A DNA stretch of 22,193 nt from NCBI GenBank assembly GCA_039802265.1, contig JBDRWI010000039.1:1-22193 (forward strand), given 5' to 3'. Shown here piece by piece: positions 1 to 6,000 of this stretch; within the stretch, counting starts at the first letter, position 1, and each line of letters opens with the position of its first letter. The position numbers are program-made. The DNA comes from a candidate division WOR-3 bacterium (GTDB lineage: Bacteria; Hydrothermota; Tepidihabitantia; SM23-42; JAOAFX01).

Positions 1-3000
1 TTGGTCTCACACTCTCAAATTTCCAGGAGGTATCTCGTTCAAGACGCATCCCTGTAAGGGATTGGATCTTATCTTTTTTGAGTGTAGCAGTGAATTCGGT
101 TGCAGGTTGCAAGGTATCAGAAGGTATAAATGCCAAAGTCCTTGAACCGAGCCAGCGATACTTACCTTTTATGGGTGGATCAAACTCAAGCGGTCCTGAA
201 GTCTCTTCTCTGGGTATTGCCTGAACCGGAGTCATTGCCTGATTGAATCCGACAAGAATTTTAAAGGTCTCAAGTTGTCCCTCAACCGAGCCGACAGGTG
301 AGATATGGGTAACCTTCAATGGGATCTTTTCACCCTCAAGAATCTGCTGGGTGGTGATATCAATACCCCTTTTTTCTTTTCTTGGGCACGATACACATAT
401 AATAATTAAAAAAATGATCGGAATAATAAAAAATCTTTTCATCTAACCCCCTTTCAATTTTTATCAGGCTTAATAGTTTATTCAGATTTTAGATAAAATC
501 AATAGTAGCAAGATATTCAGGGGGATACCCCCTGAAAACCCCCGCTATATAGCAAACCGTCTCTTTGTGCGGAGACCATTTTCATATCATCCTCCCCTGA
601 ATATCTTGAGGTATAAGAATTTGGAAAATTTCAAGGAACCCTCACCTTCATCCTCTCCCTTTTTAAGGGAGAGGGCAAGGGTGAGGGTTGGGGTTTCAGG
701 GGCTTTAGCCCTGATGATGTTCACTATAATGAAAAATTTCATTACCATTGTATAGGAATTTTTCAAATTCCTATACAAAAATATAAGTATTTGATACCAG
801 AAAAATCGGTTGGCGTTTTGCGTTTACAAAAAGCGTTTTGCAGGCACAAAATCACAGGTCGGTCATTTTACTACATTGCCACTTTTACAATGCAATACAA
901 CTCGATTTGTTTCAGTTTTCTGTTCCATAATTAAAATATATTTGGATTTTTACTAAAGTCAAGGACGAAGATGCAGAATTCTTTCCCACAAATTTCTGAA
1001 AAATTCAATTGCCACTGGGTCCCTTATTTTTGGTGACCATATATACTTAGCGAAACCAAATTGACATAAAGCATACCAGCCAAATGCAAACTGTCCTATC
1101 ACAATATAACCAGTGGCAAATTGACCGAGACCAAAAAGAATGCCCATCGCAAACTGGGCAATTGTCGCGATACCAAACATAAATTGTCCAACGCCAAAAA
1201 GAATGCCAATACCGAATTGAGCTATTGTAATCAAACCAATAGCAAACTGTCCAATTGCAATAATTCCTTTTGCAACTCTTAGTTTACCATTTTCATCTCT
1301 GCCCGTTGCAATATGAATCAAAGGAATACCCAGAATTTCAAAATCTGATTTCCATTCAAACCCCGTGCCCTGACCGCTGAACAAAGACCTACCGCAAAAG
1401 GGGCAAAAAGAGACCCCTTCCTTTATTTCTCTATGACAATTCTGGCATTTAACCATGGCGCTGGACTTAATTATATTTTGAAAAATGAATGTGTCAAGCA
1501 AAATATCTTTAAGTACTGATGGAAAAGAGTGAAAAAAAAAGCAACAATACAGTTGGGTATTTATGTTAAATGTCTAATCAAGAGAATTTTAGTTTTAAGG
1601 CATTATATCTTCTCGAGTTCCCATCTTTTGGAGAAGAACCTAAAAAGCACCCTTGACTTAAGGCATATTTTCCATATAATTAACTTATGAAGATAATTAT
1701 AGAGAAACTAAAACAAAATTTACATTCGGGTTGGGTTATTGCCAACCACATCCTTGTCTCCTTCCATGTTGCATTTATTTCATCCATTTTGTGCATTTCC
1801 AAAGATTTACAAGGGAAGGAAGTATTGGGATTTGTCTTTACAAGTGTTGATACAATAATCTCAGCAATCTTCTGGTTTATAAGCTTCCATACCGGGATTG
1901 CCATCCACGAGATGGGGCATTACCTAAGGGCAGTGAAACTCAATGCCCTGAATGAAAATATTTTACCCGCTGCCCAGAAAAGATACAAAAGCTCAGGCCT
2001 TAGTAAACTATTATGGTATATAGAAATGTTCATCAAAATTCCCTATGGAAAATTCACGGGAGTAAAGAAAGAAGGATTGACATATTATCCAGAAGCCCCA
2101 TTCAATCTAAGCGTTGCGGCCGCCGGTCCTGAAATCAGTGGTAATATGGCACTCGTGATATTGCCCGTCGCTGTGATTCTTCTGGCAATTGGACTTATTG
2201 GTGACCGCTTAATATTCACATATATAGGCAGATTATGCCTTGGTATTGGAACTGTGGGACTGCTTGACTTTCTCCTCGCTGACCCGGGTAAATATCGTGA
2301 ATTTAAAGAACGGGAAACAAAGGCGAAACAGAAGGCGGAAAAGATAGAAATATCAAGAACCGGCTGGTTAGAAAAAGCAAAGGCAGTAAAGCGAATGATG
2401 ATGGAAAAAAGAATTCAAACAATCCATCTAAAGGATGGCGAAATTGTGAGTGCACCATGGCAATTCAGAAATTGTGGTATGGGTGGCAGGCATACTGAAA
2501 AAGAATATCCGGAAAGTAATATCAGTATGCAGGAAATGATGTTTTTGCCATTATGTGCAAAGAATTATGAAGAGGCGCAGATGATCACCGTTGCCCTTCA
2601 GACCCGTCTAAAAGAGATAATAGAAAAGTCCGAAGGTGCTCGGGTGATGGGAATCGGCCTCGAAGGTGGTCTGGCACCTTATATTGCGAAAGAACCTGGG
2701 GATATTGTTCCTGAGCAGAGGCTCTGGCGGATGGCAATTCAGGCAATAAAGGATATCGGTTATCGTCCTGGTGAGGATATTGCCCTTGCATTCGACCCGG
2801 CTTTAAGCGAATTGAGTAATGCCTACCGAGAGGAATTCAATCAACCGGATGCCGTGGGCATGTATTATTTCTGGAGAAGCGAAGAAAAGGTAGTTATGTC
2901 GCGTGACCAATTAATTGAATTGTATAAAAAAGCAGTTGATGAACATCCAATTTTCTCACTTGAGGATGCCTTCGCCGAAGACGATTACGAAGGCTGGCGC

Positions 3001-6000
3001 CTATTAATGAAAGAATTAGGGAACAACTTATTTATTATCGGTGATGACATTGTAACCACGAAGGATTCCACGATCGAAAAATGCGCCGATGAGGGTTTGA
3101 TGAATGTCTCTCTCATAAAGGCAAATCAAATAGGTACCCTGTCCGAAACTTTAATCGCAATGCTTGTTGCCTTAGGCAAAGGTATGGATTTACTCGTCTC
3201 CCATCGTTCCAAATCGCCAAATGACGATATGGAGGCACAGATTGCCCTTTCGGCAAATACAATGGGATTAAAAGCCGGAGGCGGTGCTAATACTGAAAGG
3301 CTATTTAAGTATGGTTCAATTACAAAGATAATGAAAGACCTTGAAAAAAGCACCCAACTTGAATATGAGAAAAAAGATTTCAGCGCAATTAAAGAGTTAT
3401 TTAATAATTTGTTCATCACGGATGTCATTGCCTATGAGGAACCGACCAATGCCGGTATTCCCACCGTTGGAGTCGATATTTATGTGGGGATACCCGGCAG
3501 TGAGGAGTATCGCAAAATTCTTAAATTCAGCGGTTCTACTCCATTGGGAACATCGGCTGGAACTGGCGAGGCGATCCACCTTATTGACAGCACAATTGAA
3601 AAAACATCGGTGGTGGAAAAGTACCCTGAACTGTTTACACTCCAGCCCGATAAAACATATAAATTTAAAAAGGGCATAATAGAATCAGAATTAAAGGCGA
3701 AGAATGAACCGGAACTCCTCAAACTATGGTATCGAGTTCAAAGATATGAAGGAAAGGGCTGTCAGAATGCAGTGGAAAATGTTACAAATATCATTGCCAA
3801 AGAATTTATTGGTCAAAAAATTTCTGAATTTAAATCCATTGCCCAGATTGACCGTAAATTATTGATGCTGGAAAAAGGACTGGCAATCAGTCGTGGGAAA
3901 CTTGCTCCGAATGCCTCAATAGAAGAACAGATTGAAATAATGCAGAGGAAGGGCAATTTGGGTATGAATGCAATCCTATCTATGTCTCTTGCCCTGGGAA
4001 GAATGCTTGCTCACCTTCAGGGTAAGGATTTGTGGCAACTTCTCCGTGAAGAGATGAAGATTACTATCGCCAAGGTGCTTGAGGCAAACAATGCTATTGA
4101 ATTGCTGGAACCATTCGTGTCCAGAGATTTATTTAATAAACTAAAATCGGTTCCCAAGGGATACTGGCAACTCCTTGTTCAAATACCATTTTCAGAACTC
4201 GTTAAGTGTCTACAGGCATTAGAGAAAAAACTGAGAGCCGAGAATAAAAAACTATATCAAACATTGCGCAATCAAAATCCAATCTATTTTTGAAATAGAC
4301 TGCTGACCGTAGGCTAATATATATCAAGCCCGATTATGAAACAGAATTTTAAGACCTTCTGGGATATTGAGCGGGAAAAGACGCACAATATCTTCTTGTT
4401 ATTTCTCTTTCTCATCCTCCAATACTTTTTCACTTTTTTTGTGATTACCCTTTTCTTTAAACTTTTGCTTTTTTTTATGAAATCTCTTGGGAATTCCCAT
4501 TTGAGATTTCATATATTCGGCCCTGATACATTAATTGTCTTCAGTGTGGCAATTATTGCTGCATTGATTCACTGGTATTTTTCTAATAAAAATATGATAA
4601 ATAACATTCTGAAATTGCTTGGTGCAATGCCGCCTGATAAAAAGGATAAATACCATCATTTCTTTGAAAATGTGGTAGATGAAATAAGTGCTGCAGCTGG
4701 TGGTATAATAGTGGAGAAATATATTATACCAACTGGAGCAATGAATGCATTTGCTATTGCGGATTTAAAGGGCAGACGGGTTGTTGGTGTAACCGAAGGT
4801 TTGCTTTCGCGATTAAGCCGAGAGGAACTACAGGCGGTTGTCGCCCACGAAATGACACATATTGCCAGTGGTGATTGTGTGATGACAACTATTGCCAGTT
4901 CGCTCTTTGGCGTTTTCAGTGAAATTATAGAGCATTTTAATCAGATATTAACAAAGAGAAGGACAAAAGACGAGGAAGAAGGATTCATTTTTGATATCAG
5001 CAGTAGTGAAAAACAGGCATTAGCATTACAGTCATTGACATATCTACCCATTGCCCTTCCAGCTTTTATTATATTATTTTTTAGCAATATAATGGGACAA
5101 ATCCTCAATATGTTCATTTCGCGGGAGAGGGAATATCGGGCCGATGCTGGAGCAATAAAATATACAAGAAATCCACTTAGCCTTGCTACTGCCTTATACA
5201 AAATTGCCACACACTGGCGGGGCACAGCCGGGCATCTATCGCCAATATTTATCCTGAGTCCCCAGTTTAACCCGCTTGAAGACCGTGAGGATTTCTTTGC
5301 CAATCTATTCTCCACCCATCCACCAATTACAAGAAGACTGCAGATAATCCTGGACATTGCCCATGCCGACATCAATCAAATTTACGAACAAATCAGTAGC
5401 CGGAAAATTGGAAAAGAAGCCGAAGTTAAAAAAACTGAGCCAGTATTTTTTGTAGAATTTAACGATAAATGGTCTGGACCATATACAATTTTACAACTTC
5501 AGACCCTTGATGGGTTATCACCCCAAACCAGAATACGCCTGGCGGAAAGCGATGAGATAATATTAGCAGACTCAATTCCTGCCCTCAATCATTTCTTTAA
5601 GGTAAGGGATGAACCGATATGGAAAATCAGACGCCTCTGCCCTATTTGCCGTCAGTGGTTGATTGTCCAAGCGTATGAAGGACTTTATCTATGGCGGTGT
5701 GCATATTGCGATGGGATTTTAGTAGAAAGAGATAAACTTCCCCGTATATTTGTGCGGGGAGAAAAAGGTTTCAATGAGCAAATCCAGAAAACTGCAAAAC
5801 TTTTGCATACTGAAGCAAAGAAAAAGCAGAGGGTATTTAGGCTCCTCGTTGAGACAGCCCATCCGTATAAATGTCCAAAATGCGGTAACTCAATGATAAA
5901 AAGATTATATAGTTATGCTTACCACATTGAAATTGATGAATGTCCGAAATGTAATTTAATCTGGTTTGATAAGGATGAACTGGAAATTTTACAGTGTTTG

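Follow-up and report, generated by a model that had tools for sequence, protein, structure and literature searches.

The question raised by this locus is what an enolase is doing behind a membrane domain that resembles a site-2 protease, with its own two domains in reversed order, and whether it can stand in for the ordinary enzyme. Enolase is among the most uniform enzymes known, and to find one circularly permuted in nature, as an integral membrane protein, would surprise enzymologists. The gene lies on a contig of a candidate division WOR-3 bacterium (GenBank assembly GCA_039802265.1, contig JBDRWI010000039.1), of which the whole stretch analysed, 22,193 nucleotides, is called the window below.

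The gene and its domain order

The following features were identified, all on the forward (+) strand:

1653..1680, +, sigma-70-type promoter (11 of 12 consensus matches)
1687..4293, +, open reading frame of 868 aa: M50-like membrane domain, permuted enolase, helical tail
1714..2292, +, M50-derived membrane domain, aa 10-202, four predicted helices
1732..1791, +, first membrane helix, aa 16-35, by hydropathy; polar N20, H21 and H27 conserved
1906..1920, +, HExxH zinc motif H74-E75-H78, within a membrane helix
2062..2130, +, predicted beta-hairpin (aa 126-135) and AGP motif (aa 146-148), from DSSP of models and alignment
2266..2289, +, D194-x4-D199-x-G201, with D199 aligned to the Asp in LDG of M50 proteases
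2437..3357, +, enolase TIM barrel, aa 251-557
3397..4053, +, complete enolase capping domain, aa 571-789, canonically N-terminal
3547..3561, +, GTSAG motif of the catalytic loop L1
4054..4290, +, helical C-terminal tail, aa 790-868, from which long fusions extend
4336..6042, +, downstream gene, HtpX-like M48 membrane protease with C-terminal zinc ribbons

The coordinates, length, domain order and all residues listed in the initial annotation were right. Pfam places Enolase_C at 262-558 (E 2e-51), followed by Enolase_N at 684-729 (E 1e-11), and Peptidase_M50 at 65-242 with a score below the cut-off (E 0.028). The circular permutation already proposed there was recovered in our own profile-profile alignment (HHalign, with 30 canonical WOR-3 enolases as reference), in which canonical residues 142-421 align to 252-557 (P 100%) and residues 2-141 to 571-789 (P 99.6%). 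As both canonical parts align end to end in reversed order, both domains are complete and swapped. The AlphaFold2 model of the protein has a pLDDT of 87 and a pTM of 0.83; an Atlas search with the C-terminal tail (790-868) gave no lead above 0.77.

The source is a metagenome bin, and a second copy on another contig is cut by the contig end after its first 181 codons (91% aa identity), so that a chimeric assembly or a mis-annotation had to be considered. We regard this as practically out of the question: single contigs from other runs span positions 1708-3419 and 2013-5742, crossing the junctions, and the identical architecture occurs at 287 GTDB loci and in the 120 homologues listed.

The -10 box of the promoter ends 6 nt 5' of the ATG, and the mRNA is probably leaderless; the same arrangement was found at 20 of 88 loci (some of them counted twice), 19 of which are short forms like the present gene. 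The downstream M48 protease gene is probably co-transcribed with the enolase gene. Its cluster was found at 9 of 80 loci and it is not a conserved partner beyond close relatives, from which the largest neighbour clusters come in general; no neighbourhood is conserved across phyla. Neither a conserved substrate gene nor a conserved sigma/anti-sigma gene was found near the loci, and within the order carriers and non-carriers could not be told apart by their number of sigma factors. An apgM-type mutase is encoded in the same window, and the genome encodes PPDK and a second PEP-utilising enzyme. The bin, which is 89% complete, gave no PGK or pyruvate kinase match.

The enolase part

The barrel, about 31-33% identical to canonical enolases, holds H269, E283, E326, D370, E426, D453, K478, H506-R507-S508 and K529. 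Its fold matches that of 9no2 (VIA Z 32.4, rmsd 2.3, 280 aligned; next superfamily member Z 14.4); searches with the whole model returned barrel matches and are informative for the barrel, not for the membrane domain. The ligands given for S. aureus enolase in the available part of PMC4667285 (Asp244, Glu291, Asp318, Lys343, Arg372, Ser373 and Lys394) align with D370, E426, D453, K478, R507, S508 and K529, and S623 of the L1 motif corresponds to Ser42 in the same numbering. This PEP/Mg ligand set is intact in 108 of 111 modules, and the three dead enolase modules are first copies of tandem pairs. The cap finds matches among PDB sequences at E 3e-6 and carries insertions of about 50 and 20 residues relative to canonical enolase.

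The protein thus shares with canonical enolase (EC 4.2.1.11; PF03952 and PF00113; TIGR01060; 5boe, 4a3r, 9no2) the barrel fold, a complete cap and all Mg/PEP ligands, but differs in the reversed order (cut at canonical 141/142), the membrane domain in front, the loop and cap insertions, and motifs that are altered in three places: beta1-beta2, the stretch following SHRS, and the last helix of the barrel. The changes beside the site are invariant (DSRGNP to TNAGIP, SGET to SKSP and Arg400 to N535), as is, within the family of permuted enolases, a 5-residue insert directly after H269; such family-wide changes could alter the activity. These three altered regions presumably lie at the enolase dimer face. 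A figure legend in PMC4667285 puts beta1-3 and alpha12 at that face. With the reversed order and a score of 225 on TIGR01060 (cut-off 300 bits), the protein falls outside the canonical equivalog, and standard eno models miss the enzyme. The protein very probably has enolase activity.

Apparent displacement of the canonical eno gene

The genome has one PF00113 match, and a permissive tblastn search of it with four canonical enolases matched this gene alone. In its family (f1), no canonical enolase reaches the TIGR01060 cut-off in any of the 15 genomes, 11 of which are at least 90% complete (10 of them 95-99%); PGK was found in 13 of 14. The claim that this is the sole enolase therefore stands, with the addition of the truncated 181-codon second copy. 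The further claim that other members of the order keep the long form beside a canonical eno gene applies to part of them: 8 of the 31 genomes of family f3 show this pairing, three f3 genomes have the long form alone, and 19 of 31 in f3 and both f2 genomes are without a membrane-domain match.

Among 37 carriers in the phylum, the long form occurs alone in 22, from four families, and 15 retain a canonical eno. The canonical gene lies directly 3' of the long gene in 11 of the 20 regions fetched (11 phylum genomes), and at one locus a 51-codon 3' stump of eno is left 23 nt behind the long gene. The adjacent genes and the lone stump point to replacement in place; side by side, stump and lost form a natural series for gene displacement. 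At another locus the long gene stands just before divIC, and the canonical eno lies elsewhere in that genome. In family f1, the permuted membrane enolase has apparently taken the place of the ordinary glycolytic enzyme. We considered and rejected that the long gene arose recently as a duplicate of the eno beside it; the permuted enolases sit on a long branch.

The M50-like membrane domain

The relation of the N-terminal domain to M50 proteases, proposed initially on the basis of a weak match, the HExxH motif and Atlas matches, was borne out. PF02163 matches 55 of 71 members of the permuted-enolase family (best E 2e-7), and HHalign relates the domain to an RseP set (E 7e-6) and to a CBS-type M50 set (E 4e-5). 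H74, E75 and H78 are kept in 115/115, 115/115 and 119/119 sequences among the 120 homologues listed, and in 107, 105 and 107 of 111 modules. The AGP motif retains Gly in 110 and Pro in 111 of the 111 modules, D199, on the last core helix, is present in 108 and D194 in 104; a reentrant beta-hairpin and an AGP motif are described as site-2 protease features in the available part of PMC11486902.

Structural comparison gave a less sharp picture. RseP/S2P chains take VIA ranks 1, 3 and 14 of 48,161 (Z 7.5, 6.6 and 5.2), the top match to the S2P fold covering 127 aligned residues at rmsd 5.2 with a Z of 7.5 that lies in the chance range for helical bundles. Foldseek against M. jannaschii S2P (3b4r) gave E 1.8, the top Atlas matches are M50 (0.90), and the membrane-domain profile found no M50 protein and nothing credible among PDB sequences. 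PF13398 (M50B-like) had no match among the 71 family members or in this genome.

Of the site-2 proteases (MEROPS M50; RseP, SpoIVFB, 3b4r; PF02163), the CBS-bearing group III has the nearest layout. Common to both are the HExxH helix, the reentrant hairpin, the AGP helix, an Asp-Gly-type third ligand and a soluble domain behind, whereas here NxxP is absent, enolase replaces CBS or PDZ, an extra conserved first helix is present and the score is below the Pfam cut-off. In the alignment, G191 and D194 occupy the positions of Asn and Pro of the M50 motif NxxPxxxxDG, and we therefore describe the domain as M50-derived and do not count it as a typical S2P. According to a review (PMC10202637), site-2 proteases carry a PDZ domain, a CBS domain or nothing extra; the part of that review that was available does not contain the word 'enolase'.

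The first helix is the best-conserved segment of the protein (mean column identity 0.83 vs 0.72 in the barrel). N20, H21, H27 and H68 are kept in 93, 95, 102 and 99 of 111 modules and are without counterpart in M50 alignments. A role of the first-helix His as a BofA-like inhibitory zinc ligand was discarded, as the part of PMC9042235 available lends it no support and its authors favour steric hindrance. The HExxH motif is lost while the enolase is intact in two homologues (P0163 and P0217), and in the second copies of P0363-P0365 it is deleted and two helices are left. A complex prediction of the membrane domain with the enolase part scored 0.08 (mark 0.32).

Distribution and larger fusions

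The initial annotation placed homologues in three phyla. They do occur there, but the range is far wider, with the module at its 287 GTDB loci spread over many phyla. Barrel and membrane domain co-occur almost without exception (265/265 and 287/291), and a search with the membrane domain only gave an enolase in 29 of 30 long matches. Outside the phylum panel, 11 of 15 carriers tested also have a canonical eno, which indicates a role for the module besides glycolysis. In a search of shorter proteins for a close relative that is not permuted, the best 120 of 831 resemble, by identity and coverage, fragments of the long form.

At 30 of 79 loci the module is fused to a dikinase-like tail (ATP-grasp and phosphohistidine). 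This tail, related to PPDK-derived phosphotransferases (PPDK_N and PEP-utilizers mobile domain), belongs to homologues of 2,000-2,400 aa and not to the present gene, with a swivel GGxxSH motif in 108/111; in 48 genomes of the order the ATP-grasp of the ordinary PPDK was its sole match. The module also occurs inside giant proteins of 2,300-6,000 aa. Giant membrane proteins of Omnitrophota, as described in the available parts of 10.1101/2023.11.21.568195 and 10.64898/2026.06.07.730766, combine sugar-metabolism enzymes and PPDK_N, membrane-anchored, in one chain; here, in contrast, the module is a stand-alone gene. 'M50' and 'permut' are absent from the main texts of both papers, and in listings of the open-licence literature we found no description of a membrane-fused permuted enolase. 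We dropped the notion that every enzyme domain of the giant proteins is set off by an M50 core, as the core occurs once per enolase module.

Proposed mechanism and alternatives

Our main reading, to which we assign a probability of about one half, is that a functional enolase facing the cytoplasm is coupled to a site-2-type zinc peptidase that is itself active. Barrel and cap, though permuted, would together restore the active site of an ordinary enolase on the cytoplasmic side, interconverting 2-phosphoglycerate and PEP. The N-terminal domain, as an M50 descendant, would bind zinc close to the cytoplasmic face via H74, H78 and D199, and most likely still uses E75 to cut a peptide associated with the membrane. 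The long gene would have been placed upstream of eno in this family, with eno then deleted. The enolase follows the Asp-ligand helix, in the position of CBS in SpoIVFB-type proteases, which suggests that the two sites are built for coupling; the enzyme may in this way link sugar metabolism to the cutting of membrane proteins. A more speculative extension, which we hold to be doubtful, is a metabolite-gated intramembrane protease, in which 2-PG/PEP turnover switches the peptidase via loop closure and glycolytic flux controls a proteolytic signal. The permutation would then have arisen because it lets the barrel adjoin the protease, and the module would have spread as a sensor through many phyla and become the housekeeping enolase in several lineages.

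The most serious competitor, possible though clearly less probable than the main reading, keeps the enolase at work and makes the M50-derived domain a metal-binding anchor, or a small-molecule hydrolase or conduit using N20, H21, H27, H68 and D194. The domain would serve to keep the formation of PEP tethered to the membrane, beside the dikinase in long forms, for which the missing NxxP, the four conserved residues unknown in M50, the fusions to ATP-grasp and phosphohistidine domains and the two helices retained in the second copies of P0363-P0365 can all be cited. Were the domain a pure anchor, however, the catalytic Glu would not be preserved across phyla (105 of 111 modules), and neither would the hairpin and AGP; an M50B-like class with HExxH and a conserved Asp but without NPDG exists according to the part of PMC5249076 available. 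It is improbable that the M50-like domain cleaves its own polypeptide, freeing enolase or other enzymes from the membrane or from giant proteins. Self-processing was proposed for giant Omnitrophota proteins (10.1101/2023.11.21.568195, available in part), the module does occur within such giants and the conserved polar first helix might resemble a built-in substrate; yet the M50 core accompanies each enolase module and does not precede other enzyme domains, and the stand-alone form retains it as well. Still less probable is an enolase-like part that acts on another substrate or merely binds 2-PG/PEP, with eno missing through incompleteness or bypassed. The invariant substitutions beside the active site, the long branch and the canonical eno kept by many carriers (15/37 in the phylum and 11/15 others) would fit this, but eno is lacking in all 15 f1 genomes, including the 10 that are 95-99% complete, with PGK present, eno was lost repeatedly in several lineages, and the ligand set is complete.

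The module is found in hundreds of species-level genomes and would have displaced the normal gene in whole families. With this system one can ask directly if an intramembrane protease is open to regulation by an enzyme of core metabolism. For expression, the simplest member is the stand-alone form of 868 aa, which comes from a hot-spring organism.

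Domain order and active site of the enolase

The initial annotation had described the gene as a circularly permuted enolase behind a membrane domain. The gene has the following features.

1687-4293, + strand: permuted membrane-fused enolase, an ORF of 868 aa
residues 65-242: Peptidase_M50, a weak Pfam match (E 0.028; 14 bits, where the cut-off is 27)
residues 262-558: Enolase_C (Pfam)
residues 684-729: Enolase_N (Pfam)

The permutation was borne out by a profile-profile alignment of the family with 30 canonical enolases of the same phylum, in which the barrel (residues 252-557, corresponding to canonical 142-421) precedes the cap (residues 571-789, corresponding to canonical 2-141); as both canonical segments are covered, both enolase domains are complete. 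In this alignment the cut falls where cap and barrel meet, and the old C-terminus is connected to the old N-terminus via a poorly conserved linker of about 15-20 residues. In an AlphaFold2 model of the 868-aa protein (pLDDT 87, pTM 0.83) the barrel matched enolase 9no2 at Z 32.4, against 14.4 for the next superfamily member. Positions 1708-3419 and 2013-5742 were each spanned by a single contig from other sequencing runs, the source DNA was present in 8 runs (all hot-spring metagenomes, from 2 studies) and the homologues with the best names are WOR-3 bacteria.

For S. aureus enolase, excerpts of PMC4667285 name Asp244, Glu291 and Asp318 as Mg ligands and Lys343, Lys394, Arg372, Ser373 and Ser42 as PEP ligands. 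In an alignment to 5boe, D370, E426 and D453 fall on Mg ligands and K478, K529, R507 and S508 on PEP ligands, and in the profile-profile alignment S623 (in GTSAG) corresponds to the loop-1 serine of canonical enolase. H269, E283 and E326 match the canonical GGxH, QE and EGG motifs in position, and we take their roles to be as in yeast enolase. None of these residues varies among the 120 closest homologues, so that the invariance of the catalytic and metal motifs noted initially holds, and the site is intact in 108 of 111 modules (membrane domain plus permuted enolase; loci and distant representatives, a set with some duplicates). The three exceptions belong to tandem pairs: in the stored proteins P0175, P0208 and P0161 the first of two tandem enolase copies lacks the catalytic residues and the second is intact where seen; two of these three dead copies have HMxxH for HExxH as well. 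These tandems are pseudo-enzyme pairs.

Ancestry of the membrane domain

Hydropathy gave four membrane stretches, all inside residues 16-198; charged segments follow residues 84 and 198. No segment of the protein is more strongly conserved than the first helix (N20, H21, H27), at 0.83 versus 0.72 for the barrel. Of 71 family members, 55 gave a PF02163 match at E 0.1 or lower, the best of them at 2e-7. When aligned by HHalign with 30 RseP-type and 7 shorter M50 proteins, the domain had HExxH, the PYG/PLGG loop and AGP collinear with both sets (E 7e-6 and 4e-5, respectively); in the alignment to the shorter set D199 falls on the LDG Asp, and G191 and D194 take the places of Asn and Pro in NxxPxxxxDG. 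Folded alone, the domain is modelled (pLDDT 89) with a beta-hairpin that separates the HExxH helix from the AGP helix, a likeness to SpoIVFB and the M. jannaschii enzyme, for which sections of PMC11486902 describe such a hairpin. Atlas returned M50 clusters at 0.90. A structure search of 48,161 chains placed RseP or S2P at ranks 1, 3 and 14, with a best Z of 7.5 (rmsd 5.2), a value that according to the tool helical bundles can attain by chance, and Foldseek and sequence-profile searches with the domain gave nothing significant. The combined evidence speaks for an M50 origin, without placing the domain among typical site-2 proteases. If the membrane topology of RseP serves as the model, and given the charged segments, the zinc site would lie close to the cytoplasmic side of the membrane, with the enolase in the cytoplasm.

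Apparent displacement of the canonical enolase

As to sole-enolase status and DISPLACEMENT, the bin that holds the window (G000) has one PF00113 match, and a tblastn search of this bin at E 0.1, for which 4 canonical enolases were the queries, recovered only the gene at 1687-4293. The bin is 89% complete and has no match for PGK or pyruvate kinase, so its own lack of eno proves little. It is the data for its whole family (f1) that prove the absence of canonical eno: none of 15 genomes (completeness 90% or more in 11) reached the cut-off of TIGR01060, the equivalog model of canonical enolase, and PGK was found in 13 of 14. The claim that the permuted form is the sole enolase thus stands. A second copy in the bin, at C70:10090-10632 (first 181 codons; 91% aa, 88% nt), has its own promoter and is cut by the end of contig C70, which matches contigs C2, C35 and C75 at 79-95% nt. 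Its upstream sequence is a loose end in sequencing run X1 beside deeper divergent contigs, which makes a mis-binned relative its likely source; alternatively, it may be a paralogue.

The membrane domain occurs in 37 of the 271 genomes of the phylum (f1 15/15 and, in other families, f3 12/31, f7 1/1, f20 6/6 and f39 3/3); 22 have only the long, membrane-fused form and 15 a canonical enolase too. In regions from 20 of the 37, canonical eno lies directly downstream on the same strand in 11 (8 f3, 3 f39). The same order was found at the GTDB loci L048 (then divIC) and L092, and in a Promethearchaeota (Asgard) bin (L062:7845-12606) the long form is convergent to canonical eno; such loci and the phylum genomes partly overlap, and their counts are kept apart. 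At L045:10687-10851 a 3' stump of canonical eno (51 codons, 75% identity) follows the long gene at a distance of 23 nt; as a short direct repeat flanks the stump, it may be a misassembly product. The gene after it resembles that of a REP-associated transposase. At L109 the long gene directly precedes divIC and canonical eno lies elsewhere in the genome, which does not fit simple loss of eno.

In a quickly built maximum-likelihood tree with 116 barrels (75 permuted, 13 adjacent eno, 28 other canonical; the canonical sample almost all WOR-3, 3 canonical rows left out for a missing anchor motif) a long branch (SH-aLRT 97) sets all permuted rows apart, and the adjacent eno genes cluster with the other canonical rows. 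The tree argues for an old permutation, probably of single origin and not derived from the neighbouring eno. Tandem modules (L092, P0175, P0208, P0363-P0366) would fit permutation by in-frame duplication and trimming, and the patchy distribution of the module points to horizontal transfer.

Range and fusions

The GTDB scan gave 287 loci with the module. The best 79, all from metagenome bins (46-81% identity), carry WOR-3-related, Cloacimonadota, Omnitrophota, Aminicenantes, Planctomycetota, Acidobacteriota, Chloroflexota, Gammaproteobacteria, Spirochaetes and Bacillota titles and that of one Promethearchaeota archaeon. They comprise 30 complete fusions of 2,000-2,400 aa, 7 with the tail cut, 6 other long fusions, 33 short forms (some cut or split) and 3 uncalled. 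In the complete fusions (L067:7983-14063 and 29 alike) the module is followed by about 700 aa of helical/HD-like sequence and ends in a PPDK-type ATP-grasp and a phosphohistidine domain; the tail shares these two with PPDK but lacks its PEP-binding barrel. It was not found in the 48 genomes of the order, where only the ATP-grasp of ordinary PPDK matched. Of 15 carriers chosen among these 79 (completeness not given), 11 also have canonical eno and 4 have none.

A search with the membrane domain only gave 116 representatives; 29 of the 30 long ones scanned carry an enolase, and the remaining one stops at the membrane domain. Among stored proteins, a sample biased by its discovery route, 265/265 barrels have an upstream M50-core match and 287/291 complete cores a downstream barrel motif. 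As exceptions, P0163 and P0217 lack HExxH, and in P0363-P0365 the second copies have it deleted. Giant proteins of Omnitrophota-titled loci (L049:751-10395, L057, L076, P0135) also embed the module; module-bearing giant proteins further contain glutamate/leucine dehydrogenase, UDPGP or GPI domains, and their gene neighbours encode PGM and glucan-water-dikinase-like domains.

Possible function

The protein is a real, undescribed enolase variant with an obligate M50-like partner. Family members are named 'enolase' or 'hypothetical protein' in databases, and no description of a permuted membrane-fused enolase was found in the mostly open-access literature covered, outside which lie giant-protein preprint supplements that may list enolase domains. 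It is most likely a cytoplasm-facing active enolase joined to an M50-derived zinc peptidase. The enolase comes after the helix with the Asp ligand, at the place that CBS domains take in group III site-2 proteases (sections of PMC10202637 and PMC11486902). As the role of the latter is termed enigmatic and not essential in a section of PMC11486902, the analogy is a lead only. Since most carriers outside the lineage keep canonical eno, the module is presumably selected for something besides flux; in f1 and some further lineages the module would have taken over glycolytic flux too.

A tentative alternative is that the M50-derived domain is a non-proteolytic metal site or an anchor. Processing of its own polypeptide by this domain seems improbable. 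An enolase part acting on another substrate is more doubtful still, its site residues being those of canonical enolase; changes fixed in the family beside the site (DSRGNP to TNAGIP, SGET to SKSP, Arg400 to N535 and 5 residues added after H269) count against a plain enolase. The changed motifs lie in regions that form dimer contacts in canonical enolases, in part according to a figure legend in PMC4667285. An active enolase joined to a zinc peptidase stays the preferred reading.

Expression signals and neighbours

1653-1680, + strand: sigma-70-type promoter site, near-consensus (11/12), ending 6 nt before the ATG (1687) of the enolase gene
1470-1497, - strand: perfect promoter (TTGACA-16-TATAAT) of a divergent zinc-ribbon membrane gene (959-1501)
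4336-6042, directly behind the enolase gene: HtpX-like M48 protease with two C-terminal TFIIB-type zinc ribbons

The region has 23 promoter-like sites against 20.8 expected, i.e. no overall enrichment. Of 88 loci, 20 share the 6-nt spacing, almost all of them close-type short forms, which suggests a leaderless, constitutive enolase transcript. The divergent gene probably starts at an ATG just past its promoter, with a very short leader, and the M48 protease is a second membrane zinc protease in what is likely the operon of the enolase gene. Further along the window (14802-20356, - strand) two large secreted proteins (1224 and 627 aa) with internal repeats and similar C-terminal domains are encoded, adjoining a dTDP-sugar gene cluster and apgM, cmk and purH-like genes.
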